From IMG/VR virus record IMGVR_UViG_3300002446_000155, positions 1-50,437 of that record: a stretch of 50,437 nucleotides of DNA; one strand, 5' to 3'. Both the position numbers and the translations under genes were made by a program. This DNA is from a virus (Duplodnaviria; Caudoviricetes). A model generated the notes under the pieces. The model was not told the DNA's origin, did not search any database, and saw nothing but the letters and a program-made list of their open reading frames with translations. Below are positions 2,185-47,811 of this stretch, in pieces; position 1 is the stretch's first letter; each line of letters starts with the position of its first letter.

Positions 2185-2536
2185 GTCTGTGAGCTGTGTG
2201 AGCTGGGCGTTTTTAAGGAGCTCACAGGAGCGCACGGGCCGAGGTTCAATGAATTCGCGGTTTTTTGAGGTTCGGGGTGCTCCTTGTGCACGTGAGCTCA
2301 TTTTTCCAGATTTGCTATAGGATATTTTTTTTATATTTTTTTTCTCTATATTAAATTCAAAAAAAGAGCTCACAAGCTCACAGAGGGTCTGAGAGGCGCA
2401 TAGAATCTAGTCGAAACCTTGTGAGCTCATTTTTTTCTAAAAGTCACAGAGCTCACAGAACCCGGACTTTTTTGAGCTAAGTACTTGAATTCGTTACGTT
2501 GTGCCTAAAAAGCACAGAGCTCACAGAACCCGGACG
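2185..2536 (+). repeat. 352-bp inverted repeat, copy L (iteron-rich, AT-rich core; putative replication origin)
   Basis: reverse complement of 47460-47811 with 8 mismatches by manual alignment; 9 GTGAGCT/AGCTCAC heptamers; near-pure A/T tract ~2323-2365. Confidence 0.95.
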
Positions 2537-2769
2537 CGGGGTGCACACCCGCATAGATCCTCGCCTTGGGGCGTATGCGGCAGCGCCCGAGGACGCCCAG
2601 GGACGCCTTGTGCAGTATCTTAGCGCCTTCGGCTGGCAGTATACCCGGACGTTTACACATCCTATATGTAGAGGGTTTGAAGCTGACACACGCGCCTCCC
2701 GTGATGTGTGGCTCACCCTCTACCCATTTGCGGCGTTTAGGATTGGGAGAACCCGGTCGCGCTGCATGA

Positions 2770-2840
2770 TGCGGAGTAGAGAAAAGGTATCTCGTCAGGC
2801 TCATAACCTGAAGTCACGGGTTCGATTCCCGTCTCCGCTA
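2770..2840 (+). tRNA. tRNA-Met(CAT), initiator-like
   Basis: cloverleaf: GCGGAG/CTCCGC acceptor with unpaired 1:72, anticodon arm TCAGG-CTCATAA-CCTGA, T-loop TTCGATT. Confidence 0.9.
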
Positions 2841-2842
2841 CT

Positions 2843-2906
2843 AGGGGATTCAGTCTCGCGAACTGACTTGGACATGCAAGCACCCGTTCGGGTGTCGTCT
2901 CCCCTG
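2843..2906 (+). ncRNA. D-armless tRNA-like four-way junction RNA
   Basis: AGGGGA/TCCCCT closing stem enclosing three adjacent hairpins (TCAGT-CTCGCGA-ACTGA, CTTG-GACATG-CAAG, CACCC-GTTC-GGGTG). Confidence 0.5.
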
Positions 2907-2995
2907 CTACTGCGTACTGAGCTTCTCACAGCACATACGACCGTCGCCCCTGCGCAAGTACGCGGCGGTTATCTTTCGCCAACACCGACCACCTT

Positions 2996-3421
2996 ATGCC
3001 TGAAATTACAGAAGAGCATATCAAGGTAGCTCTCGCACGCCGTCTCGGAGAGGGACGGGAACGTGCGGGGGCGCGGGTCGGTGTTGATGAGCACATCGTT
3101 CGCTCCTGGGAGCAGAGCGCCTGGTGGCCGGAGGCAGAAGCACAAGCTGCCAAACTCCACAACGCGCGCATATTAGGGAAGGCACGGAGGGTCGTCGAAA
3201 GCGTCCTCGACCGTGCCCTCGAGCCCGACTGCCCTTCCAGTGTACTGAACCAGGCTGCCAATCTCTCGAAGTGGTACATTGAGACTCGTGACCCCGACTT
3301 CATGGTCGAGAACGATTCCAGTACCGCCCGAGCAATGCAGAAACTCTCGAAGGCACTTGATGCCTTGAGTGAAGATGAACTCCGAGCACTGGCTGAAGAG
3401 CCTGTAGTGTTTGGGTTCTAA
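2996..3421 (+). CDS. terS: putative terminase small subunit
   Basis: N-terminal HTH-like segment (RERAGARVGVDEHIVRSW), helical 141-aa protein upstream of terL. Confidence 0.7.
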   Translation: MPEITEEHIKVALARRLGEGRERAGARVGVDEHIVRSWEQSAWWPEAEAQAAKLHNARILGKARRVVESVLDRALEPDCPSSVLNQAANLSKWYIETRDPDFMVENDSSTARAMQKLSKALDALSEDELRALAEEPVVFGF

Positions 3422-3424
3422 AAC

Positions 3425-3498
3425 GGGGTCGCATGTCCCAAGGGCGGCGAGTGAGGTTTGCACCTTTACTGTGGTGAGTTCGATTCTCACCGACTCCA
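3425..3498 (+). tRNA. tRNA-Ala(TGC)
   Basis: acceptor GGGGTCG/CGACTCC with G3:U70 Ala determinant, anticodon loop TTTGCAC, T-arm GTGAG-TTCGATT-CTCAC, A73. Confidence 0.88.
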
Positions 3499-3508
3499 TG
3501 TTTCCCAT

Positions 3509-3581
3509 CTAGGTGTAACGCAGTTGGCAGCGAGCCCGGTCTGGACCCGGGAAGTCGCAGGTTCGAGTCCTGCCATCTAGA
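3509..3581 (+). tRNA. tRNA-Pro(TGG)
   Basis: acceptor CTAGGTG/CATCTAG (C1-G72, A73), anticodon arm CCCGG-TCTGGAC-CCGGG, T-arm GCAGG-TTCGAGT-CCTGC. Confidence 0.88.
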
Positions 3582-3594
3582 CTAAGAGACACAT

Positions 3595-5127
3595 ATGGAC
3601 CTACAAGAGCACTTCAAACAAGAAGCGCGTAAGAAATTAGCGCGACGATCGCTGCTCTCGTATACCACCTATGTGTCTCCGAAATATCGCCCATTCTGGT
3701 ACCACAAGCGTGTTGCTGACGTACTGGACCTGTGGGTACAGCACGAAATTCGGAACCTGATCATCGTCCTACCGCCTCGACACGGCAAAACGGACCTTGC
3801 ATCCCGACACCTTCCGGCCCACATTCTGGGTCGTGATCCCTCGAAGCTCGTTATTGGAGCAGCCGCTACTCAGGAGCTGGCCGAGGCAAACTCACGCGAC
3901 GTGAAGAAGATCATGCGCTCCCCCGAGCACATTGAGCTCTTCGGCGACGCGTTCGATCATTCCATCAAAGACACAGATAAGGTTTGGACGTTCCAGCAGG
4001 GCGGCACCTATAATGCCGTTGGTACCGGGAACAACATCGCAGGTCGTGGTGCCGACTATCTGATCGTCGACGATTACATCAACAACCGCGAACAGGCTGA
4101 GTCTGCTACCCAACGGGATAAGCAGTGGCAGTGGTTCCTGGATGACATTCTTACTCGTCGGCATTATCCCGCATCTACGCTCGTTATGGCGACGCGGTGG
4201 CACTTCGACGACATCATTGGTCGCATCCTCTCAGGGGATAGCTCCGAGCAGTGGACGGTTCTACACCTCCCTAAGATGCTCGAAGGTGCTCCTGGCCCCT
4301 ACGATCTTCGCACGAACGAAGGGGAGATGCTGCTGAGTCCGTTTGCATTGGCTCCATGGGAGTACTTCCCGGGCTCTCCTGTCCCTAAGCTCTCAGGTAT
4401 TCTGGAGCGTAAGGCGGTTGAGATCACGGTCGAAGAAGTACAGGAGCGGGAGCGTGAGGCATTTCTTGCGCGCCGAGCGAAGAACCCCTACGGCGTGGAA
4501 GCTCTCGAGCAGGGCAACCCCGTACCGAAGTCTGGCGGCCTCTTCGCTACTGAATCCTTCATCACATACGCGGGAACGCCTGAGGCCATGGTCGAGAAGG
4601 CGGAGTATCTCATCATCTCCGTTGATGCCAGCTTCAAGGATACCGCCACAAGCGACTTCTGTGCAATGCTGGTTCTGGCGCGCATTGGAGGCCTTCTGTT
4701 CCTCATCGACGAAGATGTAGACAGAATGGACTATCCGAAACTGAAGCGCCGATTGAAGAGCCTCCACGAGCGATACCCAAACGCCACGATTCTCATTGAG
4801 GACAAGGCGAACGGGCCCGCACTTATTGCTGAACTGCGTACAGAGATCCCTCGCGTTGTAGCGTTCGATCCCTCGAAGTACGGCAACAAAGTGTCACGTG
4901 CACAGGGAGCAGCCGACCGTTATCAGTCTGGCTCCATTCTTCACCCGACACCTGCCGTGGCCCCTTGGATTGAAAAGTTCGAGGAAGAGCTCACTGGCTT
5001 CCCCTATCGTAAGCACGATGACCGTGTAGATGCCCTGTCACAGGCTGTTCTCTACGTGGATCAACGCCGAGGCGGCAGGCAGAAGCTCACGAACGCCATC
5101 GACGCACTCACTACCCTATTCCGCTGA
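3595..5127 (+). CDS. terL: terminase large subunit
   Basis: Walker A PPRHGKT, Walker B LIVDD, ATRW coupling motif, C-terminal RNase H-like nuclease motifs SVDASF, IEDKANG, HDDRVDA. Confidence 0.95.
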   Translation: MDLQEHFKQEARKKLARRSLLSYTTYVSPKYRPFWYHKRVADVLDLWVQHEIRNLIIVLPPRHGKTDLASRHLPAHILGRDPSKLVIGAAATQELAEANSRDVKKIMRSPEHIELFGDAFDHSIKDTDKVWTFQQGGTYNAVGTGNNIAGRGADYLIVDDYINNREQAESATQRDKQWQWFLDDILTRRHYPASTLVMATRWHFDDIIGRILSGDSSEQWTVLHLPKMLEGAPGPYDLRTNEGEMLLSPFALAPWEYFPGSPVPKLSGILERKAVEITVEEVQEREREAFLARRAKNPYGVEALEQGNPVPKSGGLFATESFITYAGTPEAMVEKAEYLIISVDASFKDTATSDFCAMLVLARIGGLLFLIDEDVDRMDYPKLKRRLKSLHERYPNATILIEDKANGPALIAELRTEIPRVVAFDPSKYGNKVSRAQGAADRYQSGSILHPTPAVAPWIEKFEEELTGFPYRKHDDRVDALSQAVLYVDQRRGGRQKLTNAIDALTTLFR

Positions 5128-6546: not shown

Positions 6547-7177
6547 CGCAGAAGACTTCGACTTCCCTCATCACTTAGAGCGCCAGTACAATCTGGAACT
6601 CGTGAGGATGTCGAAGGCACTCGACCGTCAGCTCAAGGCGGCCGCTAAAAGGGCACTCAACGGGGTTCATTACGAGCGCCTGGCACGCGAGGCCATGGAG
6701 GCGGTTCTCACTACCTTCAGGCACACGGAGCTCGCTACGCGCATCGTGGAGCTCTTCTACGCGTGGGTGCCTATTGCGTGGCGCAGCGCCCAACGTGCGA
6801 CGACCATCGGACAGCAGGTAGACGTCCTTCGACAGCAGCTCATGATAGAGGCGATGCTACGAAAGCAGGTCACCGACTACACGAAAGCATTCCATGCAGG
6901 CGAGACGAAGTTCGGAAACCAGGCGAAGAAAAGCGCCAACAGGGCAGCCTTCTACTCTCGCGATCAATCCGGCCACCTATATCACCGAGCAGCCGTTAAA
7001 CAGGCCGCGACGGACAACTATATTGGCTACATCTGGCTCCGTACGACCTCGGCTTCGCCTCGAGACGAACACCTCAACCGCGTTGGGAAGTTCTTCTACT
7101 TCGGACAGGTTGGTGACGAGCCGGGCGTGCTGCCAAACTGTAAATGCGGGATGCGTCCCGTACGAGAGGAACCATGA
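6536..7177 (+). CDS. minor head morphogenesis protein (Mu gpF/SPP1 gp7-like)
   Basis: follows portal; C-terminal YIW...RDEH...GKFF...PGVLPNCKC signature; start uncertain (ORF open from 6443). Confidence 0.8.
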   Translation: MRNDAEDFDFPHHLERQYNLELVRMSKALDRQLKAAAKRALNGVHYERLAREAMEAVLTTFRHTELATRIVELFYAWVPIAWRSAQRATTIGQQVDVLRQQLMIEAMLRKQVTDYTKAFHAGETKFGNQAKKSANRAAFYSRDQSGHLYHRAAVKQAATDNYIGYIWLRTTSASPRDEHLNRVGKFFYFGQVGDEPGVLPNCKCGMRPVREEP

Positions 7178-8607
7178 CCATCAAACGACTGAAGGCTCCG
7201 TACGACGACTACGGCATTGATTCCAGTGGGACTGTGTGGTCGTTCAAAGGCGGGACAAAGTCAAAGGTCAAGCCTCGCGACGACAAAGACGGCTATCAGC
7301 GGGTCAATCTCGCAGACAAAGGCGCGTCAAAGAACGGTTTCAAAGAAGTATACATTCACAAACTGGTGGCGAAAGCATTTCTTCAAGGCTCCGGCCACGT
7401 ACTCCACAAAGACGGCAACCGTAAAAACAACAAGGCTAGCAACCTGAAGTACGGCACCATTCAGGAGAACGCCAAGCAGCGTGAATCTGACAAGCGAGCC
7501 GACAGCGAAGACTTCGTGGACACAGAAGACTGCGACGCCCCATTCTGGCGTATTGATGCGGCTGTTAAAGCCACATGGCGTCTGACGCCTGAGGGCTACC
7601 TCGAGGCTGATCGTATTGTCGTGGCGGAAGCTAAGGTCTACGAATACGCCGACCCGAATGTCCCTGGCGGCAAGCGGTTCGAGCTGGTGACTGAAGAGGC
7701 CCTGACTACTCTCGCGATCACACTGGTCGGGAAGCCGATCACAGATGAGCACCCTGCGCATGGGAAGGTTGACGCTGCTACGTGGCGGCTTCTAGCGCGT
7801 GGTGTGGTTCAGCGTGCATGGGTGGAAACACCAGAGACTCACGACGTACCGCACGCACTGTGTGTGGCCAGCGCCATCATCACAGACAAAGAGCTCATTG
7901 ACAAAGTACTGAACGACAACATCCGCGAAGTATCTCCGGGATACGACGCAACACTGGCCCGCGCCCCTGAGGGCGTGACCGAATACCATTTCATGCAGAC
8001 AGCGCGCAGCGGGAACCATCTAGCCGTAACCAAGGCAGGTCGAGGCGGCGCTACTTCATCCATTCGGCTCGATTCTATGGGCCACGCCACCACCACCGAG
8101 GATACGATGGAAAACGAAAAGAACGACGCCGTTGAGGATCTGGAGCAGAAGCTCGATGCTATGCAGAAGAAGCTGGACGCGGCCCAGGCCAAGGTCGACG
8201 CCTACGAGAAGGCAGCCGAGGACGCGAAGAAAGATAAAAAAGACGCAATGCCTCCAGAGGACAAAGAGAAGGACGAACGTACCGACTCCGCCAACTTCGT
8301 GAAGCTCTACAACGAGCGTCGAGGAGTCGAAGAGGTCGCTACCCGCCTCGGTGTCAAGTACGAAGTGAACACCACTACTGCTGACATTAAGAAGCAGGTC
8401 GTACTGGGCAAGTTTGGCGCTGACTTCCGAGTGGACTCTGTGGAGCGCATCGACGCTGCGTTCGAGGCTGTGGAGAAATTGCTCCCATCACCGTCGCATC
8501 CTCAGGCACTGGCTGACGCATTCAAGCGTGCTGACAGCACCTTCAACCGTCCTACGCAGGACACCGCGAATGATGACTTGTTCGCCGCATACGACAACAA
8601 ACGATAA
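7174..8607 (+). CDS. HNH endonuclease fused to DUF2213-type prohead protease/scaffold
   Basis: N-terminal IHKLVAKAF..VLHKDGNRKNN..NL (HNH); central GKPITDEHP, EVSPGY, NHLAV..GRGG (DUF2213); C-terminal charged coiled coil; GAGGA RBS and ATGA overlap at 7174. Confidence 0.85.
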   Translation: MTIKRLKAPYDDYGIDSSGTVWSFKGGTKSKVKPRDDKDGYQRVNLADKGASKNGFKEVYIHKLVAKAFLQGSGHVLHKDGNRKNNKASNLKYGTIQENAKQRESDKRADSEDFVDTEDCDAPFWRIDAAVKATWRLTPEGYLEADRIVVAEAKVYEYADPNVPGGKRFELVTEEALTTLAITLVGKPITDEHPAHGKVDAATWRLLARGVVQRAWVETPETHDVPHALCVASAIITDKELIDKVLNDNIREVSPGYDATLARAPEGVTEYHFMQTARSGNHLAVTKAGRGGATSSIRLDSMGHATTTEDTMENEKNDAVEDLEQKLDAMQKKLDAAQAKVDAYEKAAEDAKKDKKDAMPPEDKEKDERTDSANFVKLYNERRGVEEVATRLGVKYEVNTTTADIKKQVVLGKFGADFRVDSVERIDAAFEAVEKLLPSPSHPQALADAFKRADSTFNRPTQDTANDDLFAAYDNKR

Positions 8608-29491: not shown

Positions 29492-29699
29492 CCCACACCT
29501 CGCCTGCGTTCTTCCGCCACACTGTCTCCTGCCGTACTCGGATCACGAAGAACTCGTCTGGGCCCACGTTCACGCGCCATCGGCGCTTGTTGGAGAGCAC
29601 GTTCTTCGCTGCAACGAGTGTGGCATAGGGTCCATACATCACCCCGCCTGCGTCGACGTAGTAGATGTATTCACTCAGGCTCAATTTCCTTGAGTTCAC
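29481..29699 (-). CDS. hypothetical protein with GPY..A motif
   Basis: GTG start with GGAGG RBS and GTGA overlap; MYGPYATLVAAKN. Confidence 0.55.
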   Translation of the reverse strand: MNSRKLSLSEYIYYVDAGGVMYGPYATLVAAKNVLSNKRRWRVNVGPDEFFVIRVRQETVWRKNAGEVWDAD

Positions 29700-31412: not shown

Positions 31413-31687
31413 AGTTCTCCTGAGGTAATGTGCCATTCCGTTGTGCCGCTGCGTACAATGACGACTCCGCCGCACGCTTCTACGAGTTCCACGAACCTCT
31501 CAATACTGGGCGACTGTTCACCCTCTTCGTACTTCTTCAAGGACGTGGACTGTACTTTATGACCTGTCTTACGGCATACCGCGAACTTTGTCAACCCTGC
31601 GAGCTCTCGCACGAATGTCAGAGCACAATACCATGGTGTACTGGTCACGCGACCGCTCAGGCCGATGTCTTTGAGTGTTCTGGTCAT
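31409..31687 (-). CDS. XRE/Cro-family HTH protein
   Basis: RELAGLT...LKKYEEGEQSPSIERF..L motif. Confidence 0.75.
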   Translation of the reverse strand: MTRTLKDIGLSGRVTSTPWYCALTFVRELAGLTKFAVCRKTGHKVQSTSLKKYEEGEQSPSIERFVELVEACGGVVIVRSGTTEWHITSGEL

Positions 31688-32109
31688 AGTGGGAGATCCA
31701 GTGTCCATTCTTCCAAGGTCCCGTTACATGGGAGCACTCGAAAGACTGTTAATGCGTCAATGTCGGCCAGTACGGGTCTTCCGTCGATCCCCTCGGGCTT
31801 CAACACTCGTCCCAGCGTCCCGTTGAACTTGTAGATCCCTCGGTGCTTTGCGTCCTGAACGGTGACCCTCTTAATGCCTTCCCGAATGACAGTGAATTTC
31901 TGTTCCGGTGCAACTTTGAGGCTCCATGGCAGGTGGTTCGGTCCCCTCAGTGTGACCACACACGCACAGACTTTTGACTTCAGAGAGATGTCATCCACTG
32001 GCAGGGTGAAGTCTCCCAGACGCACGCGATCGCCGATCTGCAGCTTATTGGCCTCGCATTTTAGTTCTTCTACCTGTACCACAGGCACATACTTGGTTGG
32101 TGTCCACAT
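31684..32109 (-). CDS. hypothetical protein
   Basis: AGGAG RBS before MWTPTK (alternative start 32190); LQIGDRV SH3-like start. Confidence 0.55.
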   Translation of the reverse strand: MWTPTKYVPVVQVEELKCEANKLQIGDRVRLGDFTLPVDDISLKSKVCACVVTLRGPNHLPWSLKVAPEQKFTVIREGIKRVTVQDAKHRGIYKFNGTLGRVLKPEGIDGRPVLADIDALTVFRVLPCNGTLEEWTLDLPL

Positions 32110-32186
32110 ATCTTTTCTCCTGATTGGGGGATTACATCGAAGGCATCCACTACATATACTATCTAAGCCGTTCTGGCAACCCATAT

Positions 32187-32675
32187 TCATAATCGCTCCA
32201 AATGAAACAGCCCCAGACCTACGGCGTCCAGAATCTCTTTGTGGTTCGCCGCTGGACAATCCCGTAGTCCTGCCTCGAGGTTCCGTGTTTCCTGCGCACT
32301 GAGGCGCTTGCGGATACGCAGGTGGTTGATCTTCTTCGTGCGTCCTCCTGTCCACGAACTGGGACGCAGGTAGAGTACCGGAGCTCCGTGCGAGAGCGTA
32401 CTTCCTCCGATCATCGCCAGGTCAATAAGGCTACTCCAGGCGTCGCTTCGGCTTCCCCGAGGCTCCATCCGCTCGACGATCAGTCCCGTCGCACCACACT
32501 CCCCTATGCGGGAGTTCAGGGCATTCGCCATGGCCCCGACGCGCTCATCGATCGGCATGGTTTTATCGAGCTCAGGGCTCTGGATGAGCTCCGTGAACCA
32601 CAACACTCCGTCCACGAAGAGCGCCAAACCACACTCATTCAGTCCCGGATCAATCGCTACAAGTCTCTCACTCAT
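32187..32675 (-). CDS. RuvC-like Holliday junction resolvase
   Basis: AIDPG...G, IVE, PSSW, DAVGLG acidic RNase H-fold motifs. Confidence 0.8.
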   Translation of the reverse strand: MSERLVAIDPGLNECGLALFVDGVLWFTELIQSPELDKTMPIDERVGAMANALNSRIGECGATGLIVERMEPRGSRSDAWSSLIDLAMIGGSTLSHGAPVLYLRPSSWTGGRTKKINHLRIRKRLSAQETRNLEAGLRDCPAANHKEILDAVGLGLFHLERL

Positions 32676-32877
32676 TGTCTGTCTCCTTTAGTATCTCAGC
32701 CCACATTTCGGAATAGTCAGCAGGTGGAGCGAAGAGCTCCCAGGCGTACCCATGCTCCTCGGCACATTGTGGGCACACATGCGCCCTGATGTCAACCATA
32801 ATGACCCACCGCCCGGTGTCCCACCCGTAGCGCCCACACAATCGGCATCGAAGTGCAAGAGGTCTCATTTTGCCCAC
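32668..32877 (-). CDS. small zinc-finger protein
   Basis: CxxC...CxxC. Confidence 0.55.
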   Translation of the reverse strand: MGKMRPLALRCRLCGRYGWDTGRWVIMVDIRAHVCPQCAEEHGYAWELFAPPADYSEMWAEILKETDNE

Positions 32878-34862
32878 CTCTCTCGAAGGATCTTAGGTTT
32901 CGCCTCTACCAGAAGGTCGGGAAGAAACACCTTCATCCCCATTACCATCAGGCGGCTGAGTTCAGGTGCCGCAACCTCGGCCTTCTCTACTGGAGTCTCA
33001 ATCAGGATCTCATCGTGCACAAAGAGGAGCCCGTGCGACCCATACAGTGGAGACTCGAGCTCCGTGTAGCACGCCTTCTGTACGAGATGCACTGAGTACA
33101 ATGCCCCGTCGGCCACGATGCCTTGGAACCCTGTGTTCGCAGCCGCTGGGAACCGATTGGTCACTCGTGTGCGCCATCCCGATGTACGCCTGCCTGGACC
33201 ATGCTGCTCTACATGGAACGATCCACGAACCGACTGGAGCGAATTGATGTGACGGAAGTACGGGTCCACTTCGGTCCATGCCTTCCCCCACGCCGCACGC
33301 ATCTTCTCAGCATCGTATTGCGTGATCTTCACGCCGAAGCCGTCTGCGTACTCCACGAAAGTTCGAGGGGAGGCACCGCCTGCAAAGCCGTAATTAGCGA
33401 TCTTGGAGATTTGGCGCATCTCCACCACCACGGGATCGCCGTCTTTGTATCGTGCCACGGCATCTTCATAGCTCATGTTGAGGAGCTTCGCGGTGACGTA
33501 GAGGTGGAGGTCCATTCCGTTGTTGATGGCCAGTGCCAGGGTACCCAACTGCCCGGTAATGTTACGACATATCTGTGCAAGACCCGCCATTTCAATCGCG
33601 GTGTAGTCGGCCGCCACGAAGACGTACCCTGGTCGAGGGATAAAGCAGCCCCGAATGTCAGGACCAATGGCCATTCCTGCCAACAGGCGATCGATGGGTT
33701 CGCTCTCATCGTCGTCCTCCCCTTCCCCCTCAGTGAGCTCCTCCCACGCCTTCAGTGACGCCGAATCCTGAGCGTTCACACGACTTGGGAAGTTCTGAAC
33801 GTTCGGCCCGGATGCCGAAGTTCGCCCGGAGTCTACAGTCTCATTGTACCGAGGACACAGTGGTCCGTCGCCCGCATCGGTGAGAGGGTCCAGGTAGGTC
33901 GACAGGAACTTCTCCGAGCGATTCATGCGGCTGTACCACTGGAAGATGGGCTCAGTCACGCCCTTGCCCTCAAGGTACTTCATGGTCTTCGCGTCGGCCT
34001 TGATGGCCCCTTTATCTGTGAGGATAGGATTCTCTCCAATCTCTGCCCACGCCCGACGAATCACTTCCTGAATGACAGGCCGCTTCTTTGTTCCGCCTTC
34101 GATAAGCGTTCGATCCTTACCATCCGGCATCGTGATGTGCTCCTGCTCCAGAATGCCACGGTACTTCGCCGCCTCCGCCTCGTAGTGGGTGCGAAGAGCT
34201 CGCGTCCACTGCCCGTCAACCATGAGCCCCCAGGCTGACATCAGGTGAAGATCGAATGCGTACTGGGAGCGCACAGGAACGCCCCCTGAGTTCACACTCT
34301 TCACGGTACGCAACTTGTGGAAGATGCGCCATGTGACATCCGCGTCACGTAGTGCATAGGCGTAGGCGGCCGCTGGGTAATCCTCAGCCCGCTTCCCCTC
34401 GAGCTCATTGTAGCGATTGCGCCATACATCGGGACCAAGGCCCTCACGCACCTTCCCGTCGAGCTTCTCCCCGAGCCATCGCTCCGTGAGTGCTGCCAGG
34501 GAATAGCGTCCACGTAGGAACATCCCACCAAGGGAGATGTCGTACAGCTTCGTCTCAATACCGACGTCCCACTTCTTTGCGGCGTAAATCTTGTTGAAGA
34601 GCGCCTGGGCCTCCTCAGGATACGCCTCCTCCATTGCTCGAGCCATCACAGCCATATCGAACGCCAGATTCAGGCCGATGAAACAGGCTCCCTCAATCTC
34701 CAGCCATTCTTTGAAGAGCGGGATCGCCCTTTCACGCTCCACAAGCACGGGCGTACCACCGTCAATGCAGTAGCTCATACACACAAGGCGAGGTACGATG
34801 TCTTTGGTCGCCTTCCCGTTCTGGTAGAATGGGTATGTTTCGGTGTCGAATGCGATGTTCAT
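32865..34862 (-). CDS. polA: DNA polymerase family A with 3'-5' exonuclease
   Basis: ExoI DTET, ExoII NLAFD, ExoIII YALRDA; SGRTS..PNVQN; motif A ADYTAIE, motif B RQISKIANYG, motif C VHDE. Confidence 0.95.
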   Translation of the reverse strand: MNIAFDTETYPFYQNGKATKDIVPRLVCMSYCIDGGTPVLVERERAIPLFKEWLEIEGACFIGLNLAFDMAVMARAMEEAYPEEAQALFNKIYAAKKWDVGIETKLYDISLGGMFLRGRYSLAALTERWLGEKLDGKVREGLGPDVWRNRYNELEGKRAEDYPAAAYAYALRDADVTWRIFHKLRTVKSVNSGGVPVRSQYAFDLHLMSAWGLMVDGQWTRALRTHYEAEAAKYRGILEQEHITMPDGKDRTLIEGGTKKRPVIQEVIRRAWAEIGENPILTDKGAIKADAKTMKYLEGKGVTEPIFQWYSRMNRSEKFLSTYLDPLTDAGDGPLCPRYNETVDSGRTSASGPNVQNFPSRVNAQDSASLKAWEELTEGEGEDDDESEPIDRLLAGMAIGPDIRGCFIPRPGYVFVAADYTAIEMAGLAQICRNITGQLGTLALAINNGMDLHLYVTAKLLNMSYEDAVARYKDGDPVVVEMRQISKIANYGFAGGASPRTFVEYADGFGVKITQYDAEKMRAAWGKAWTEVDPYFRHINSLQSVRGSFHVEQHGPGRRTSGWRTRVTNRFPAAANTGFQGIVADGALYSVHLVQKACYTELESPLYGSHGLLFVHDEILIETPVEKAEVAAPELSRLMVMGMKVFLPDLLVEAKPKILRERWAK

Positions 34863-41247: not shown

Positions 41248-42102
41248 TCAGAAGAACGCGAAGGGGTCTTCTTCTTCCGTTGTGTTCTTGAATGCCGCGA
41301 AGGGATCTTCTTCCTTCTCTTCGCGAGTCTGTCCGCAGATGCCGTAGAACTGACATTGCCCGTAGTTCCAGCACGCTCCTCGATTTACAGGAACGTCCTC
41401 CTCACACTTGGTGCTAGCGAGCGCCTTCATCGCAGGAACAACCTTTTTGTCGAGATCTTCCCACACCATGCGCAGGTAAGGAATCGGCAAGTCTACTCCG
41501 ATGACTTCGACGCCTTCGTTGGGAGGTCGGAGGACATTAACGTGCTCGACATGGATGTGATCCCAACCTGTCGCGCGGGCGACCACAGCAGCATAGTACG
41601 ACTGCTGGACATCAGCGCGGAAGTCCTCATCGGTGCGCAGCGTGAATCGCATAGACCCTCGCGTCTTGTAGTCGCGAATGGTATGTGTGGCAGGAATGTA
41701 CACGTCGATGTACCCACTGGCGACGACATCGCCGTCCAACACGAGGCCGAAGTCATCAAGGGGCTTCTCGAGTTCGACACCTTCGGTTGTGAATACATCC
41801 AGAATTTCTGGATGCTCCCGAAGGACGTACTGTGCCATGTGGAAACCTTGCTCTTTTGACTTTGGGAACTTACGGACTGACTCAATCGGATCATCATAGC
41901 TCCCTTTCATTGCGGCGAACTCGCCGTCAGTAGGCCATCGGCCCTTGCTCGCGCGAAACTCCATGAACGCATGGAACACCGTACCTACGGCCATGGCCTC
42001 GTTCTGTGCCTGCTCCAAGGGATTCTCGTCGCGATAGCGGTACCAGAATTTCCGAGGGCACTGGACGTACGCGCCGATACTTGTTGAGGATACTCGATTC
42101 AT
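41248..42102 (-). CDS. PD-(D/E)XK RecB/Cas4-like exonuclease
   Basis: S.TSI..Y..CPRKF, GTVFH, GYID, DYKT, QQSYY, C-terminal C.....C....C; AAGGA RBS at MNRVSS. Confidence 0.88.
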   Translation of the reverse strand: MNRVSSTSIGAYVQCPRKFWYRYRDENPLEQAQNEAMAVGTVFHAFMEFRASKGRWPTDGEFAAMKGSYDDPIESVRKFPKSKEQGFHMAQYVLREHPEILDVFTTEGVELEKPLDDFGLVLDGDVVASGYIDVYIPATHTIRDYKTRGSMRFTLRTDEDFRADVQQSYYAAVVARATGWDHIHVEHVNVLRPPNEGVEVIGVDLPIPYLRMVWEDLDKKVVPAMKALASTKCEEDVPVNRGACWNYGQCQFYGICGQTREEKEEDPFAAFKNTTEEEDPFAFF

Positions 42103-42112
42103 CACTTCTTCC

Positions 42113-42391
42113 TTAAAAGGGCCACTCGACATCTGCGTCGGCTGACTTCGGTTTTGGTTTCTTCGGCTCTTTTTGCTTCTGCTCCCAGATCCACTCACTT
42201 ACAATGAGTGTACCGTCTTCGTCAAGGAACGATTGACTCTTTGGCCACCAATATCCCTCCGAGTCCAGATAGGCCATGGCCGTCTCACGCTCGATGGTGC
42301 GGTCTTTCACACACCTCCAGTTGTCATCACTGCCTCGCTCGTCTGAGTAGTAGTCGTAGTCATCATAGTCACCAGGGGTATGCCAGCTCAT
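42113..42391 (-). CDS. hypothetical protein (92 aa)
   Basis: ETAMAYL..WWPKSQ...VSEWI pattern; ATGA-coupled. Confidence 0.65.
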   Translation of the reverse strand: MSWHTPGDYDDYDYYSDERGSDDNWRCVKDRTIERETAMAYLDSEGYWWPKSQSFLDEDGTLIVSEWIWEQKQKEPKKPKPKSADADVEWPF

Positions 42392-43065: not shown

Positions 43066-43655
43066 ATCTTCCTCATCATGTTGGTGGCGAGCGCCTGGGA
43101 TACCACGATGCCTGCCATGCATTCAATCTCTCGTCGGGAGATCACGTCGATGGATGCCCCGTAGTACGGCTCGCCATCCGGAGGCTCGTCCCCGATCTGG
43201 TATATGGTACGTCCCCACGTCCACGACTTCAGAATGGTGTAGTACTCAGCCTCGAAGCGCACGTCGTCGATGACCACATGATCAGGACACGCCATGATGC
43301 TGTCACGGAGCTTGTTGATCCAGTGGAATGGGTCGCGGCTACGCTCGTACTCCCCCAGCTCAATGAGGATGTCGCGAGGTGTGACTTCCATACCAGGAAT
43401 CGGGAGATCCTTAGCTCCATGCCCGAAGGGATCTGCCGTGGTCTGAAGGTACATCTTGACCAGCGGGTCACGAACAGCCTCGTTGCGCAACAGCTCCCAG
43501 CCTGCCTCACGCAGAGGGTCCGCGAAGGACATCCGCCTCCAACCCACATAGCGATCACAGATAGCCTTCGCTGTCGTGGTCTTCCCTGCTCCTCGAGCCC
43601 CGCACAGTCCGATCAGAAGAGGGCCCGGTGCGTTGATGCGTCGTTTCTTACTCAT
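43062..43655 (-). CDS. deoxynucleoside monophosphate kinase
   Basis: GLCGARGAGKTT P-loop, SFADPLR, TPRDILIELG, VIDDVRFEAE. Confidence 0.88.
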   Translation of the reverse strand: MSKKRRINAPGPLLIGLCGARGAGKTTTAKAICDRYVGWRRMSFADPLREAGWELLRNEAVRDPLVKMYLQTTADPFGHGAKDLPIPGMEVTPRDILIELGEYERSRDPFHWINKLRDSIMACPDHVVIDDVRFEAEYYTILKSWTWGRTIYQIGDEPPDGEPYYGASIDVISRREIECMAGIVVSQALATNMMRKI

Positions 43656-44115
43656 AGAATGCTCCTTCAATCAGGTCTGCTACTGTTACGTCGTACGCTT
43701 CCGCAAGGTCGATCACCTGAAGCAGGGTAGGCAAATGCTTTCCCTTCTCCCACGAAGCCAGCGTGCTGGTGGCGACTCCAATCTCGTGTGCGGCGTCGGC
43801 CAGTGGTATTTCCTCGAGGACACGGTAGCCCTTCAGGCTCTCGCCGAACTTCACAGCGTCGAATCGATCCGCGGTCCCGAAGACCGGAAGTGTGTCCGTC
43901 GACGGCCGCTGCTTCGACAGGGCGTCCGCGAAGTCCTGAATATCGAGCCCGAGGGCCTCCGCGATACGCATAGTCTTCACGATGTCCGGAACCGACTCGT
44001 CCTTCTCATACATACGGAGTGTGGAGTCCGGGCAGCCGCTCGCAGCGGAGAGTTTGCCCTGGGTCATGTTGATGTGCTTACGCTGTTCTACGATGTAGGT
44101 TCCGAGGGTGGTCAT
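43648..44115 (-). CDS. tandem double XRE-HTH transcriptional regulator
   Basis: two XRE domains (MTQGKLS...YEKDESVP..IAEALG; AAHEIGV...WEKGKHLP..LAEAY); AAGGA RBS. Confidence 0.85.
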   Translation of the reverse strand: MTTLGTYIVEQRKHINMTQGKLSAASGCPDSTLRMYEKDESVPDIVKTMRIAEALGLDIQDFADALSKQRPSTDTLPVFGTADRFDAVKFGESLKGYRVLEEIPLADAAHEIGVATSTLASWEKGKHLPTLLQVIDLAEAYDVTVADLIEGAFYE

Positions 44116-44456
44116 ACTACTTCCTTTTCGTCGATGATGACAGTTCCAAAGTATTTCGATTCGCCACATGAAAAACACTTCACGAGGTGGGAGTCAACAT
44201 ATCCACAGCTCTGACAGAAGTCCAGCTCTTTTTTCGACTTGGTGACGAATTGGTACAGCGCGCCCAACACCGCCTTCTCGTAGCGGTTGAATTTGGGCTG
44301 CGAGATGTGCTCCGGGAGCAAGGTGATGCCTCCCATTTTGACATCGTTGCCGACCTTGTGGATGACCTGTGCCTCGATCAGACCATCGGATTCGTAGTCG
44401 GAGGAGACTGCTTCAACAGTATGGTAGCCGAAGGCTTTTGTGATTGTGACTTGCAT
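44112..44456 (-). CDS. hypothetical protein with C-terminal zinc ribbon
   Basis: CQSCG...CFSCG. Confidence 0.6.
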   Translation of the reverse strand: MQVTITKAFGYHTVEAVSSDYESDGLIEAQVIHKVGNDVKMGGITLLPEHISQPKFNRYEKAVLGALYQFVTKSKKELDFCQSCGYVDSHLVKCFSCGESKYFGTVIIDEKEVV

Positions 44457-44857: not shown

Positions 44858-44873
44858 ATGCTCTCCTTTATCG

Positions 44874-47348
44874 TTAGAGTTTGAACACATACTCAGAGTG
44901 TTCTTCTGTTGTTCGGGCATCTTCGCGCTCTCTTGCACAGTTGTCAATAATAAAATCGTATTCTGCCAAAGCTCTGTCTTTTGCCGCTTCCGCAATGACC
45001 GAGGCGGGGATCTGCCAGTACATGCGCTGGGTGCGCTGGGCCCCATAAGTGTCCACATCTAGACGACGTGTCTCTCCTCCTGAGAGCGAGCGAAGCGCCT
45101 TCATACGTCCATTACTCAAGGGCACACGGTCACCCGGCATCAACTGCTCCCATTCGGCCGCCAGTGCCGGGTTATTGATGAAGACGTGATTGTCGAACCA
45201 GCGCACGGACTCCCACTGACGTCCTGAGAGGATAGCTGACACAGCCGCATCGATGATCAGTCCTGCCGATCCCACCGTACTTGGCAGGTGTTTGATGAGC
45301 GGGCTGTCCCATCCCTCTACAAGGAAGCGTGAGCCCGGAGTGAACTCGCGGTGCTGTGCGAGCCACAGGATGTGTCGGGCGATCAGGCCGTCCGATCTCC
45401 AGCGATCCGCCATACTGCGCGCTGAGGGAGCTCCCCTCTTCTTCGCTAGGTCGATGAGGTACTTCTCGCCACCAGGACCCACCTTCACGTATCCAAGGCG
45501 CAGACGGAGCGCGTCGATGTCGTTCGGGTCGAGATCCTCCCGGAACGTGAGAGCCTCAGAATTGTTCGCTGTGATGATGATCCGAGGATACCCCTCGACG
45601 ATGGCCGCCGAACGATGCTTCAGGTTCACGCGGAAGCTCGAGTTTCCTACCATCCGGCGGAAGACGCTCGAGTCCTGCTGCTTCCCATGAGGGACTTTCT
45701 CGTCGGCATACACCAGGGGACTTTGTGTGAGCGTTTCGTTGAAGTCCTCGAGGAGCTCCTCGTAAGGCACAGTGCGACATTCCCGTGACCACAGGCGTGC
45801 GAGGCCATACGTGAGCAGGCCCTTACCTACCGACCGAGGCCCGTCGATGTACAGGGCGCATACAGGCATGTCGAGCTGAGGGAGCGCAGCCAGCCAGTCC
45901 ATGACCGACTCATAGTACTCTGAATCCACACCGAAGAGTGCCTCGAGCCACCCCTGAATATCGGGATCGTACTTCGGAGTGAGCGCCGCGTCTGGACGAC
46001 AAACAGGCACATACATTGTCTCCGTGTTGGGATCGAAGCCGCCCTGCTCTGGGATGTACGTGTAGACCAGACGGTTCGCCTTCGTACTGTGCGCACGCAT
46101 GATCTCTGCGAACGAAGAATACCAGTCGCTCAGGAGAGTAGGACAGAGCTGGTCTGCCGTTGTGAGCACCTGATGCTGATGGGAGCAGCCCGACGCATAA
46201 CGCTCGCGACCTTCATCCCACACGAACTGCTCGGAGCCCAGGTCGACGATGAGCCGACGAGCCACATCATGCACAGGCACATTCATAGCCTTCGCTGCTC
46301 GCTGGAGTGCTGTGCGCCGCTCCTCTTTGTCGTTCGTCTGGAAGCCGTCATAGGCCGCCGCCGCCCATTCACAAATGCGCCAGACTTCCGCTTCCTGCTT
46401 GCCGAGCTTCTTCGCGGCTTTCACGATGAGACGGTAGGGGATCAGGGGATCGTTCGAGGCGTACGCGGTCACAATGCGCAGGGATGCCTCCAGGAGTGTT
46501 TTGTGCCGCTCGCCCACAAGGCAGGTCAAGGTGCCATGGTAGAGCTGGTCGGCGAGGTCGGGGGACGTCTTCGCAAGGTTCTTCAAGTCTGCCTTGGTGA
46601 TCTTGTAGTCCTCTACGTGAGTGATCGCCTCCGAGAGTGTACGAGGCGCTGCCGAGCCAATTGCCGAGGCCGTTGTCTCCTCCAGATGCTCCGGCATCCA
46701 GTGGAGTACCACACCGTCACGAAGCGCCGAGAGATCCATTGGGTACGTACGTCCACCCGCTCGAGGGGCACGGAAGAGTCGAGTCCAGTCGACGGTGCCT
46801 GAGTCCGTTGGAATGCCCATGGCCTGGAGCGCGGTGTGTGCCTGCGACAGGAAGGAGCCTGCGAGTGGTAGAGGGATAGGGCGCGCCAGTGCGTACACGA
46901 GACGGAGCCCATGTGGCGTTCGATACCACGCGCAGGCTGAGGCAAACTCCCCGGTGAGTTTGGAGAGGATCTCCTGCTCCCATCCCTCGTGAGGTGGTTC
47001 GTGATTCAGGTAATCGATGTCAATCAGAAGACACGTTAGCTTAGGGTCAGTTGAGTCCCAGGAGGAGGAGTAGTTCACCACGGCGCTGGAATGAAGTCGA
47101 GGATACGTGATGTCCTCATCGTTCGAGGGGCAGTAGCCTACAATACAGGTATCAGGATCGCGGAAGTGTGTCTCAAGCGCGGAGTAGAGCGACATACGCT
47201 CCAGGAGAGGCACCGCCTTCGTCCCAATAAATATCTCGTTGCTCGTTCGGTTGTCAACAGGGGCACCCGTCCACGCACGTACATAGAGATGGGGTACAAT
47301 GAGGACTTCAGTCTTGTGCGCTTGTGAGCTGTTTTTTTCTTCTGTCAT
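44874..47348 (-). CDS. primase-helicase (AEP-like N-terminus plus SF3/D5-like NTPase)
   Basis: LIDID and TPHGLR primase-like motifs, GERH PriCT-like segment, Walker A GPRSVGKG, ADE, ITAN. Confidence 0.85.
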   Translation of the reverse strand: MTEEKNSSQAHKTEVLIVPHLYVRAWTGAPVDNRTSNEIFIGTKAVPLLERMSLYSALETHFRDPDTCIVGYCPSNDEDITYPRLHSSAVVNYSSSWDSTDPKLTCLLIDIDYLNHEPPHEGWEQEILSKLTGEFASACAWYRTPHGLRLVYALARPIPLPLAGSFLSQAHTALQAMGIPTDSGTVDWTRLFRAPRAGGRTYPMDLSALRDGVVLHWMPEHLEETTASAIGSAAPRTLSEAITHVEDYKITKADLKNLAKTSPDLADQLYHGTLTCLVGERHKTLLEASLRIVTAYASNDPLIPYRLIVKAAKKLGKQEAEVWRICEWAAAAYDGFQTNDKEERRTALQRAAKAMNVPVHDVARRLIVDLGSEQFVWDEGRERYASGCSHQHQVLTTADQLCPTLLSDWYSSFAEIMRAHSTKANRLVYTYIPEQGGFDPNTETMYVPVCRPDAALTPKYDPDIQGWLEALFGVDSEYYESVMDWLAALPQLDMPVCALYIDGPRSVGKGLLTYGLARLWSRECRTVPYEELLEDFNETLTQSPLVYADEKVPHGKQQDSSVFRRMVGNSSFRVNLKHRSAAIVEGYPRIIITANNSEALTFREDLDPNDIDALRLRLGYVKVGPGGEKYLIDLAKKRGAPSARSMADRWRSDGLIARHILWLAQHREFTPGSRFLVEGWDSPLIKHLPSTVGSAGLIIDAAVSAILSGRQWESVRWFDNHVFINNPALAAEWEQLMPGDRVPLSNGRMKALRSLSGGETRRLDVDTYGAQRTQRMYWQIPASVIAEAAKDRALAEYDFIIDNCAREREDARTTEEHSEYVFKL

Positions 47349-47378
47349 GTAAAACTCCGTCGTTTTTCAGGGATTGTG

Positions 47379-47407
47379 AAGGTACGCCAATGTGTCGAAG
47401 GCGTCAA
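47379..47407 (-). promoter_or_regulatory. sigma70-type promoter TTGACG-17-TACCTT
   Basis: -35 at 47402-47407, -10 at 47379-47384, upstream of primase-helicase. Confidence 0.65.
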
Positions 47408-47459
47408 GTGGCATTCGCGGAAGGTTGCGACCCACGCAGAATCAAGCACTTACGTCCTC

Positions 47460-47811
47460 CGTCCGGGTTCTGTGAGCTCTGTGCTTTTTAGGCACAACGT
47501 AACGAATTCAAGTACTTAGCTCAAAATAGTCCGGGTTCTGTGAGCTCTGTGACTTTTAGAAAAAAATGAGCTCACAAGGTTTCGACTAGATTCTATGCGC
47601 CTCTCAGACCCTTTGTGAGCTTGTGAGCTCTTTTTTTAAGTTTAATATAGAGAAAAAAAATATAAAAAAAATATCCTATAGCAAATCTGGAAAAATGAGC
47701 TCACGTGCACAAGGAGCACCCCGAACCTCAAAAAACCGCGAATTCATTGAACCTCAGCCCGTGCGCCCCTGTGAGCTCCTCAAAAACGTCCAGCTCACAC
47801 AGCTCACAGAC
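47460..47811 (-). repeat. 352-bp inverted repeat, copy R (iteron-rich, AT-rich core; putative replication origin)
   Basis: reverse complement of 2185-2536; lies between divergent promoters next to the primase-helicase gene. Confidence 0.95.

Follow-up and report, generated by a model that had tools for sequence, protein, structure and literature searches.

Why a phage should carry the same non-coding sequence twice, in opposite orientations, is the question raised by the DNA analyzed here, 50,437 nucleotides from a virus of the Caudoviricetes (IMG/VR record IMGVR_UViG_3300002446_000155; hereafter, the window). The answer that we favor, by a modest degree of belief, is that the two elements are one iteron-type origin in duplicate, similar to that of SaPIs and used with a two-copy logic like that of oriL and oriR in phage SPP1. 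The preliminary description of this locus, which had read the element as origin-like and the pair as a possible device for inverting the segment between the copies, is thus partly supported.

The repeat pair and its surroundings

The two copies of the 352-bp element, copy L (2185..2536) and copy R (47460..47811), are situated ~45 kb apart on the map and together make up 1.4% of the window. Copy R had been described as the reverse complement of copy L with eight substitutions and no indels, and both a repeat search (98% complementary over 352 nt) and blastn (97.7% over 352, gaps 0, E 5e-174) bore this out, with differences at copy-L positions 2207, 2215, 2229, 2240, 2356, 2358, 2383, and 2469 and an abrupt end of similarity at both borders. 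Further out, the 13-mer ACCGTCACACCGT, read from the sequence at 2095..2107, has its exact reverse complement at 47821..47833, again as described; it lies 77 nt from copy L, just 9 nt from copy R, and includes an 8-mer identical to the repeat motif of a related phage, G001 (see below). Both copies are intergenic, at the starts of transcription units, and each lies between divergent units. Where an open reading frame overlaps the repeat, four of the five codon differences between the copies change the amino acid, which argues that the element is non-coding.

Two public sequencing runs, X1 and X2, speak to the reality of the pair. In their contig graphs, four distinct flanks enter a shared 296-nt piece of the repeat, which has about double depth (25.2 vs 9.7 + 11.7 and 35.2 vs 13.4 + 14.6, respectively); hence, both copies are real and neither is an assembly artefact. 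In X1, one contig extends 584 nt past base 50437, and that of the left arm reaches 148 nt past base 1. Both ends of the window are therefore breaks in the assembly, and the segment that the copies bracket measures at least 5,542 bp instead of the ~4.8 kb first estimated. The same overruns, of at least 584 and at least 148 nt, tell against both the suggestion that base 50437 joins base 1 and the alternative of a linear genome with sub-terminal origins.

Outside the copies, transcription leads away from the repeats, as had been noted. Specifically, the left arm (41..1888, minus strand) reads away from copy L in packed small genes of unassigned function, none of the five scanned matching a PHROG family, and the right arm (47905..50437, plus strand) reads away from copy R in small overlapping genes, likewise unassigned, the last of which is still open at the window end. 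AT skew has opposite signs in the two arms. Promoter-like sequences were found for the primase operon (TTGACG-17-TACCTT, 47379..47407, minus strand, between copy R and the start codon), for the right arm (TTGACT-17-TATCTT, preceded by TG, 47844..47872, plus strand), and, by eye, for the left arm (TTGACA-17-TAGGGT, 1931..1959, minus strand, followed by GGAGG and then an ATG at 1888). Because three of the four flanking units have their promoter-like sites beyond the repeat, the element does not appear to be simply a promoter copy. The fourth unit is the late module downstream of copy L, whose start (2770..5127, plus strand) comprises tRNA-Met, a putative small terminase gene (2996-3421), tRNA-Ala and tRNA-Pro, and the large terminase gene (3595-5127). 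By eye, no sigma-70-like promoter was seen between copy L and these tRNA and terminase genes, so the late genes may need an activator.

This last observation, together with the place of both copies at the starts of transcription units, invites a regulatory explanation, in which the element is an array of operators or activator sites with a bent AT-rich tract, whose position at the borders of modules would serve to time the adjacent operons. The related operators of phage lambda, at OL and OR, offer a parallel, and the window encodes both a tandem double-HTH_3 protein (43648-44178) and a small HTH protein, either of which, or the multi-HTH protein of G001, could be the real binder of the motifs described below. 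We nonetheless regard this explanation as unlikely, if still deserving of some weight. The primase gene and both arms have consensus-like promoters that stand outside the repeat, and operators can do without 352 bp of conservation and without the genome's most AT-rich 66 nt. Further, HTH proteins are not common to the window and the two relatives compared with it, whereas the primase-helicase is.

Anatomy of the element and the neighboring primase-helicase

Each copy holds eight TGTGAGCT motifs, in both orientations, around a 66-nt core; in copy L, they run +,+,- to the left of the core and -,-,+,-,- to its right. Sixteen of the 23 occurrences of TGTGAGCT in the window fall inside the two copies, in opposed arrays flanking the core. 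For GAGCTCACA, with at most one mismatch allowed, there were 43 occurrences against 15.4 expected, a count reached by none of 100 shuffles, and the two copies contain 18 of the 43 overall and 10 of the 14 exact matches. The core of copy L (2300..2365) falls to 9-14% GC in 22-nt windows and recurs with two substitutions as the core of copy R (47631..47696); the two are the lowest-GC 60-nt windows of the genome, at 0.15 vs 0.35 for the next region. GC skew in the window is confounded with gene direction and argues neither for nor against an origin. Opposed motif arrays, the most AT-rich DNA of the genome, and an adjacent primase-helicase gene nevertheless amount to the origin-like anatomy that the preliminary description had proposed.

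The closest parallel is with the staphylococcal pathogenicity island type of origin. In SaPIs, the origin consists of 6-12 penta- or hexanucleotide iterons, opposed and at least two per side, around an AT-rich centre; the iterons are bound by the C-terminal winged helix of Rep, and the origin adjoins rep (PMC9371898). The element studied here likewise has short iterons, opposed across an AT-rich centre, beside a primase-helicase gene, and this point-by-point agreement is a further argument against a purely regulatory module. Three differences stand out: SaPIs have one origin immediately downstream of rep, whereas here there are two copies and the gene-adjacent one is upstream; the motif, at 8-9 nt, is longer than the 5-6 nt of SaPIs; and the carrier is a ~50-kb myovirus-like phage rather than a satellite.

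The gene next to copy R (44874..47348, minus strand) encodes an 824-aa fused primase/SF3 helicase (DUF5906), with copy R 111 bp upstream of its start codon. Its AlphaFold model (pLDDT 81) matched the helicase region of NrS-1 (Z 16.7), SaPI5 PriRep over model residues 433-774 (Z 14.1-14.2), and also vaccinia D5 and PriRep1 in complex with dsDNA (Z 12.6, model residues 450-801); identity to the SaPI proteins is only 10-15%. A winged-helix fold is predicted at approximately residues 690-810. When the C-terminal 145 aa were folded separately (pLDDT 79.7), the 50 matches listed were, by entry title, mostly winged-helix DNA-binding proteins or domains, with the C-terminal domain of SaPIbov1 Rep at rank 4 (Z 6.5); the match is middling, as the best Z was 7.3, none reached 8, and such values may mean a common fold. 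Between them, the full-length and C-terminal models matched structures 7ola, 7om0, 7pds, and 8tch. On the strength of these models, we propose the primase-helicase as the candidate initiator that binds the TGTGAGCT motifs, which would make it comparable to SaPI Rep/PriRep, SF3 helicases with a C-terminal winged-helix domain that act as initiators (PMC9371898).

Under the origin reading, the protein would be "self-loading" in the manner of SaPI Rep, poxvirus D5, and NrS-1. Its C-terminal winged-helix domains would bind the mostly opposed motifs on both sides of the core, two helicase rings would assemble and melt the 66-nt AT-rich stretch, and the primase domain would then begin synthesis.

Element pairs in two related phages

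The comparison spans three genomes: the window, G001 (complete), and G002 (a 45% fragment), whose primases are 36% and 33% identical, respectively, to that of the window. Two ORFs only had blastp matches in both relatives (G002 being a 45% fragment), namely, the primase-helicase and a 671-aa ORF at 15672-17687. The architecture seen in the window recurs in part, in that both relatives carry a pair of elements, but as direct rather than inverted repeats, with copies 76-84% alike. In G001, the pair lies at 3112-3464 and 25539-25894 (75.8% alike), copy 1 lying upstream of the terminase genes and copy 2 of the primase gene; together, the copies account for 25 of the 29 TGTGAC matches, which flank an AT-rich core as opposed arrays. 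After copy 2 comes a consensus TTGACA-16-TATAAT, and the GC skew of G001 showed no turning point. In G002, the motif is ATGTCCC, with 18 of 19 matches in the elements, of which one adjoins the primase gene and the other comes immediately behind the major head gene. Between the three genomes, the elements have no alignable sequence in common, and the motifs differ in each.

Since the copies within each relative are only 76-84% alike, the pair is old and maintained in this phage group, and its presence in such distant relatives makes a role in the DNA replication of these phages probable. For the near-identity of the copies in the window, recent duplication and gene conversion had both been put forward; the divergence of the relatives' pairs weighs against the former, and homogenisation is the more likely cause. 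The inner 296 nt are identical between the copies in both X1 and X2. The inverted arrangement in the window phage follows from its replication module being inverted relative to that of G001.

The relatives also bear on two further explanations, both highly improbable in our judgment. One would make the element a small non-autonomous mobile element, MITE-like or akin to the MPMEs of mycobacteriophages, that landed twice. A non-coding unit of ~350 bp with imperfect terminal inverted repeats (formed by the opposed motif arrays) and with GCGG on both sides of copy L would suit such an origin. However, copy R has no clear target duplication, and searches of 50,697 phage records and of IMG/VR with the element and with a 23-mer taken from it gave no match, although near-identical records may lie outside their scope. 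Further, the pairs of the window and G001 occupy matching places (pre-terminase and pre-primase) with copies only 76% alike in the latter, and thus look like old, maintained elements rather than recent insertions. The other explanation, just as hard to credit, is a duplicated packaging signal (pac), with small-terminase binding repeats around a cleavage region. The pac sites of P1 and SPP1 do consist of repeats flanking a central region, and copy L and copy 1 of G001 immediately precede the genes for the small and large terminase. Yet the other copy stands beside the primase gene in all three genomes, the second copy of G002 follows the major head gene, and two opposed pac sites would initiate packaging both ways.

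The place of the second copy is thus inconstant, before the terminase genes in the window and G001 and after the major head gene in G002, while one copy adjoins the primase gene and, in the window, the other marks the border of the late module. This variability would suit a transcription signal equally: the G002 position is typical of a terminator or late promoter, and a multi-HTH protein is encoded directly downstream of copy 1 in G001.

Possible recombination between the copies and a proposed role of the second

Inverted repeats also bracket flippable segments in the 2-micron plasmid of yeast (FRT/Flp), where the flip amplifies copy number, and in the G segment of phage Mu and the C segment of P1. 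By analogy, recombination between copies L and R during theta replication could reverse one fork, giving double rolling-circle amplification and two isomers, as the preliminary description had imagined. The copies are inverted and nearly identical, with the inner 296 nt the same, and the phage encodes recombination functions of its own, as had been supposed: a PD-(D/E)XK exonuclease, an Mre11-like exonuclease, and a RuvC-like Holliday-junction resolvase (32187..32675, minus strand; E 1.5e-5), with the exonucleases at 41248-42198 and 29696-31228. Further, in X3, a run from a different study, a single 3,102-nt contig joins the terminase-side flank, the whole repeat, and the right arm to 49227, and is the sole evidence for inversion. 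This flipped junction could be a real isomer, a fixed strain difference, or a chimera across the collapsed repeat, as the contig has a depth of 2.1 and the primase side is without cover in X3; short-read contigs break at the repeat and give no isomer ratios. The flippable segments of 2-micron, Mu, and P1 rely on a dedicated site-specific recombinase and short crossover sites, whereas the repeats here are long and origin-like, and no member of the tyrosine or serine recombinases (Flp/Int and Hin/Gin kinds) was found in the window, in line with the earlier observation. In G001 and G002, the pair consists of direct repeats, between which flipping is impossible, so flipping cannot be the conserved function of the pair. 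As the purpose of the duplication, we therefore consider such a switch improbable.

For a duplicated origin, SPP1 offers a different use for the second copy. In SPP1, one initiator serves two origin-type sites, only one of which is in the replication region; in the published model, the fork stalls where initiator occupies the second site, and theta turns into recombination-dependent sigma replication with the help of a phage exonuclease, recombinase, and resolvase (PMC3485210). The exonucleases and RuvC-like resolvase encoded here supply functions that this model requires. The SPP1 initiator G38P and its helicase G40P, which has a loader, belong to other families than the primase-helicase studied here, and oriL lies inside gene 38. 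In addition, oriL and oriR are not known to share more than short boxes, in contrast to the 352-bp near-identical module here. Satellite phage P4 is also comparable, in that its alpha primase-helicase, whose DNA-binding domain is C-terminal, depends in cis on two distinct clusters, ori and crr, of one short repeat; these clusters are structured differently and are separated by a few kb. For the second copy in the window phage, the SPP1 pattern gives the most likely role: it would start replication in its own right or, with initiator bound, would act as a barrier at which forks stall, after which replication would be handed to the phage exonuclease and resolvase functions, yielding concatemers for headful packaging.

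Homologous recombination between the copies would be harmless because they are inverted; it would hold their sequences almost the same and ought to flip the intervening segment, of at least 5.5 kb, as well. Herpes simplex virus combines these features: its oriS, an AT-rich centre between opposed initiator boxes, lies within the inverted repeats on either side of the short unique segment and is for that reason present twice, and its segments flip by homologous recombination into isomers. That animal virus has kb-long repeats, the initiator UL9, and proven equimolar isomers, against putative isomers here.

The repeat pair and the genome that carries it

The element analyzed here is a real, conserved and paired origin-like element, probably a SaPI-type origin with an SPP1-like duplication, whose functions we infer from its build and surroundings. 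Its two copies, L (2185-2536) and R (47460-47811), are inverted, 352 nt long and separated by 8 substitutions and no indels (E 5e-174), just as the preliminary description had stated, and the outer pair of 13-mers that flanks them is an exact match. The same description had the arms reading outward from the repeats, which is borne out by ORF packing, by a sign change in AT skew and by promoter-like sites outside the repeat. Specifically, TTGACT-17-TATCTT (47844-47872) lies in the right arm, outside the repeat, while TTGACA-17-TAGGGT (1931-1959), found by eye, is followed by GGAGG and an ATG at 1888. The primase operon has TTGACG-17-TACCTT (47379-47407) between copy R and the start codon.

IMG/VR holds the phage as a complete virus record of 50,437 bp (classed 'linear', CheckV completeness 100%, ~56% GC). 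Its plus strand carries a structural and lysis module (~2.8-27.4 kb) with the large terminase (3595-5127), portal, major capsid protein, baseplate J and Pam3/E217/XM1-like parts, and its minus strand carries a replication module (~27.4-47.3 kb) with a family A DNA polymerase (32865-34862), a DEAD-type helicase, PD-(D/E)XK and Mre11-like exonucleases, two methyltransferases, a RuvC-like resolvase and a primase-helicase (44874-47348). Four tRNA genes are present, three of them found by both ARAGORN and Rfam; tRNA-Ala (3425-3498) was called by ARAGORN and is absent from Rfam at gathering score. Among cultured phages, there was no close DNA match and no match to the primase, and identity to the large terminases of Bacillus, Listeria and Staphylococcus phages reaches just 30-34%; the primase, used as a single protein query against IMG/VR, also returned no match, in a search from which records close to the window may have been withheld. 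PHROGs gave nothing for 10 candidate arm ORFs (five of the right arm, four left-arm ORFs read from the minus strand and a plus-strand shadow frame at 26-505). The two arms show no paralogy to each other and have no homologues in the distant relatives G001 and G002, and no full-length version of the ORF cut by the window end was found among longer proteins.

Logan contigs of four public sequencing runs (X1 and X2 from one study, X3 from another, and X4) were aligned to window 46000-50437, and the contig graph of X1 and X2 is the pattern expected of a genuine two-copy repeat. In both runs, the primase-side contig stops at 47489, a 15.4-kb contig enters the repeat at 47460 with an overhang identical to 2537-2566 in reverse complement, a contig from the left arm enters at 47726-47811 with an overhang identical to 2155-2184 in reverse complement, and a right-arm contig is also present. 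The common 296-nt piece (47460-47755) has approximately double depth (25.2 vs 9.7+11.7 in X1; 35.2 vs 13.4+14.6 in X2) and carries copy-L letters at the four central substitution sites, so that the inner 296 nt are identical in both copies in these runs. The copies are told apart in the contigs by arm-proximal differences at 47756, 47767 and 47781, and probably by a fourth at 47789, as judged from the count of four other letters in that contig. The central substitutions of copy R in the window (47527, 47613, 47638 and 47640) are missing from the X1, X2 and X3 contigs, and the X4 contig begins right after 47640; these sites may vary from sample to sample instead of marking a constant difference between the copies. 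An assembly artefact, considered as the source of the second copy, was excluded by the X1 and X2 contigs together with the pairs in the relatives.

Further, X1 contigs overrun the window at both ends: the left-arm contig (2,418 nt, 86 of them within the repeat) extends 148 nt beyond base 1, and a second contig, beginning at 50400, extends 584 nt beyond 50437. The window ends are thus assembly breaks and the window is not the whole genome, which tells against the earlier suggestion of a linear genome with sub-terminal origins. Previously put at ~4.8 kb, the stretch between the copies is corrected to at least 5,542 bp (2184+148+2626+584). An identical primase-helicase is also found on a 53,526-nt contig. 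The left-arm contig (window 1-2184) is deeper than the others, at 22.3 vs 9.7-11.7 elsewhere in X1 (~2x) and 19.2 vs 13.4-16.5 in X2 (~1.3x), and this extra depth, for which contig depths are too crude a guide to decide, may reflect a second strain with the same arm, terminal redundancy or over-replication.

Anatomy of the element and a candidate initiator

Within the two copies, short motifs are concentrated around an AT-rich core. With up to one mismatch, GAGCTCACA has 43 matches in the window vs 15.4 expected, a number reached by none of 100 shuffles, and 18 of the 43, including 10 of the 14 exact ones, fall inside the copies. Likewise, 16 of 23 occurrences of TGTGAGCT lie within the copies, which make up 1.4% of the DNA. 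In copy L, TGTGAGCT is oriented +,+,- to the left of the core and -,-,+,-,- to its right, and neighboring motifs are often 9 nt apart, as in CACAG-AGCT-CACAG. The 66-nt tract between the motif arrays has a GC content of 9-14%, and no other 60-nt window of the genome is as poor in GC as the two cores (0.15 vs 0.35 for the next lowest). The single-strand fold of the element is strong (z -4.4) because the motifs are opposed, and Rfam identified no RNA family in it, the only families in the window being tRNAs. An ORF over the arm-side half of the repeat is not conserved as a protein, given that four of five codon differences are non-synonymous and that the two versions have unlike tails. GC skew gave no origin signal, being confounded with gene direction in the window and lacking a turning point in G001.

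Two sets of motif sites lie outside the copies. First, seven lone TGTGAGCT sites (1181, 11949, 12833, 16411, 19338, 35154 and 47323) occur beyond the elements, where ~1.5 would be expected for an 8-mer with both strands counted; the structural module has four of the seven, all in one orientation, and one is 137 nt from copy R, within the first codons of the primase gene. Second, the 11-mer GCGCCTTCGGC, a GCC-TTCG-GGC hairpin, occurs three times vs 0.05 expected (no shuffle of 100 reaches three), at 2145-2155, 2172-2182 and 2623-2633. All three are plus-strand sites that bracket copy L and not copy R, and most of the 68-nt difference in length between the outer flanks of the copies is due to the two arm-side ones.

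The origin of SaPIs is described (PMC9371898) as 6-12 penta- or hexanucleotide iterons that adjoin rep and surround an AT-rich center, with at least two per side in opposed directions; the iterons are read by the C-terminal winged helix of Rep, and the AT region is probably flanked by two hexamers on loading. In a 2026 preprint, the same SaPI group reports that the C-terminal domains of the helicase bend origin DNA. [quoted passage not shown] Specifically, the gene at 44874-47348 lies 111 bp from copy R, a putative SF3 initiator gene adjoining an origin-like element, as in the SaPI type. We therefore lean towards a duplicated iteron origin with the primase-helicase as its initiator, and the origin idea of the preliminary description gains support from the opposed arrays around an AT-rich core, the adjoining gene of the putative initiator and the pairs in relatives.

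The 824-aa product of this gene matches DUF5906 (30.3 bits, cut-off 27.6) and a PHROG DNA primase family. Its homologues number 12 among 5.8 billion proteins, at 35-71% identity, with one further weak partial match (E 2e-6, 17% of the query covered), and a profile search against PDB sequences gave nothing meaningful. An AlphaFold model built on these 12 homologues (pLDDT 81) matches SF3 'self-loading' helicases, namely the NrS-1 helicase region (Z 16.7), SaPI5 PriRep (Z 14.1-14.2, model residues 433-774) and PriRep1 on dsDNA (Z 12.6, residues 450-801), as well as vaccinia D5, mpox E5, the ASFV primase-polymerase, AAV Rep and papillomavirus E1. Alignments of the full-length model to 7om0, 7pds and 8apl reach residues 774-801. 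When the C-terminal 145 aa were folded separately (pLDDT 79.7), the 50 matches listed were, by entry titles, mostly winged-helix DNA binders or domains. The best Z among them is 7.3, all being below 8 and thus middling, and the C-terminal domain of SaPIbov1 Rep ranks fourth (Z 6.5, 93 residues aligned). The C-terminal domain is thus predicted to be winged-helix-like, and its fold and position would suit a putative reader of the iterons. A 176-aa protein of the primase operon (43648-44178, minus strand) has two tandem Cro/CI-type HTH_3 domains (E 1e-19). This protein could recognize half-sites arranged as direct repeats, and among potential binders of the motifs spaced at 9 nt it is the chief rival to the primase-helicase. 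The relatives do not conserve the HTH_3 proteins found in the window.

Pairs in distant relatives and the near-identity of the copies

Two related virus records, G001 and G002, whose primases are 36% and 33% identical to that of the window, were compared with it. G001 is 48,670 bp long and 100% complete, with a 99-nt terminal overlap and all modules on one strand. It is syntenic with the window and gives the best matches for 23 window ORFs, three of these being antisense shadows. G001 carries a direct repeat (3112-3464 vs 25539-25894, 75.8% alike over 363 columns), the first copy of which is upstream of genes for a multi-HTH protein and the small and large terminase. The second precedes the primase gene by ~2 kb and has a consensus TTGACA-16-TATAAT after it. 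Each copy carries TGTGAC(GG) arrays, 25 of the 29 matches in the genome being inside the copies, with six of seven motifs plus on the left of copy 1 and six of seven minus on its right, and the AT-rich cores between the arrays have GC contents of 0.18 and 0.20. Such cores are the lowest-GC windows of each genome. G002 is a 22,965-bp fragment (45% complete) in which a first, repeat-rich element separates the minus-strand primase gene from the plus-strand terminase module, and a second follows directly after the major head gene; 18 of 19 occurrences of ATGTCCC and the two lowest-GC windows are in these elements.

Two separated sites with common repeats in one genome are thus found in the window, G001 and G002 alike, and each genome has a motif of its own. 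Cross-genome alignment of the elements gave shuffle-level scores in both orientations, with no alignable sequence in common, and polarity is not comparable between genomes. An apparent common 'TTTTTTCT..TTAAATTC', seen by eye across elements, was dropped, given this shuffle-level alignment. Only two ORFs have a blastp match in both relatives, the primase-helicase and a 671-aa ORF (15672-17687). In a search of genome contigs, the only match was a 7,070-nt contig (L017) from a bin labelled Bacteroidetes, 99.9% identical to G001 26229-33298; it is not independent of G001 and stops short of the element. That a G001-type phage turns up in a bacterial bin may hint weakly at its host, or else the binning is at fault.

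Upstream of the early genes of G001 (46,700-48,010; L009 ~6700-8010) are five tandem sigma-54-type promoter-like motifs (TGGCACG-N4-TTGC), directly preceded by a 60-nt window of 17% GC and followed by three ~90-nt repeats, each with TTGACA-17-TA(C/T)TTT and a leader before a small ORF. Stacked sigma-54-like sites are, to our knowledge, unusual for a phage.

The varying position of the second copy and the HTH proteins at hand would fit an element that is a regulatory module. This is the serious alternative, yet we think it rather unlikely, as the repeat does not contain three of the four promoters at its flanks and has an anatomy that suits an origin better. That the element is instead mobile (MITE-like or MPME-like) is very improbable, given that, in searches from which near-identical records may have been withheld, it has no match in phage records and its 23-mer has none in IMG/VR, and that the pairs of the relatives are old and sit at corresponding places; we give equally little credence to a pac site.

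Returning to the paired origin, the pairing is old and has been maintained, since arrays and core survive even in copies whose identity has drifted to 76%. The recent duplication proposed earlier does not fit these old pairs, and the 98-99% identity of the window copies is best explained, on the strength of three genomes, by homogenization between inverted copies. An inverted pair can be homogenized because exchange between inverted copies is harmless, while exchange between direct copies would split the genome. The pair is inverted in the window because the replication module, with its own copy, is inverted relative to G001. If the reading as a paired origin is right, direct pairs at 76-84% identity vs an inverted pair at 98-99% would provide a natural comparison, informative on the way concerted evolution and genome rearrangement in phages depend on repeat orientation.

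The second copy and the question of inversion

The nearest published logic for the second copy is that of SPP1, by which an initiator-bound site would stall a fork, with recombination-dependent, concatemer-forming replication ensuing. SPP1 has two origins, and the initiator at oriR is thought to stall the fork, after which phage exonuclease, recombinase and resolvase turn theta into concatemer-forming replication (PMC3485210). The window phage has genes for matching functions, exonucleases and a RuvC-like resolvase. If the element is indeed a duplicated iteron origin, a whole phage group retains two copies of a SaPI-type origin, and the two-origin idea from SPP1 would be extended to SF3 self-loading helicases. 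P4 ori/crr, HSV oriS and the 2-micron plasmid are further systems for comparison. Among the titles and abstract openings listed in literature searches, none describes a phage with an origin of the primase-helicase type duplicated as a long-range inverted repeat, and the origins of uncultured phages are, as far as we know, almost never located. Here, the anatomy, the neighboring gene of the putative initiator and the conservation in three divergent genomes point to a specific 352-bp element that is testable in vitro without the host.

Alternatively, the inverted, initiator-bound origins could form a recombination-driven flip switch, in which homologous exchange during theta replication reverses one fork and leads to double rolling-circle amplification without a site-specific recombinase, so that virions contain two genome isomers, a state with parallels in herpes simplex virus, in plastid DNA and in the 2-micron plasmid. 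One 3,102-nt X3 contig does have the flipped junction of terminase side to right arm: it comprises 1,334 nt (the last 30 being the terminase-side flank), the whole repeat and the right arm to 49227, with copy-R letters on the arm side. However, this contig has a depth of 2.1, and X3 leaves the primase side uncovered, which we do not read as absence. The contig could stem from true isomers, but with equal likelihood from a chimera through the collapsed repeat or from a fixed difference between strains. The window has one arrangement, and the X1 and X2 contigs break at the repeat and so cannot tell orientation. We regard the flip switch as unlikely.

The preliminary description saw no site-specific recombinase, and this stands within the window: in six frames, PF00589 and PF00239 (tyrosine and serine recombinases of Int/Flp or Hin/Gin type) had no match at E <= 1 while controls matched, and, of 37 Pfam families over the 83 ORFs, the top 25 included no recombinase. 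These searches covered the window, and at least 0.7 kb between the arms lies beyond it and could hold one. If flipping is true, this would be a recombinase-free invertible segment in a phage. A separate inverted match of 49 nt (88%) joins 28562-28610, in the tail of the replication module, and 49667-49715, in the right arm; it falls in two small genes on opposite strands, hence in the same coding sense in both, and its two halves are on separate contigs in X1 and X2.
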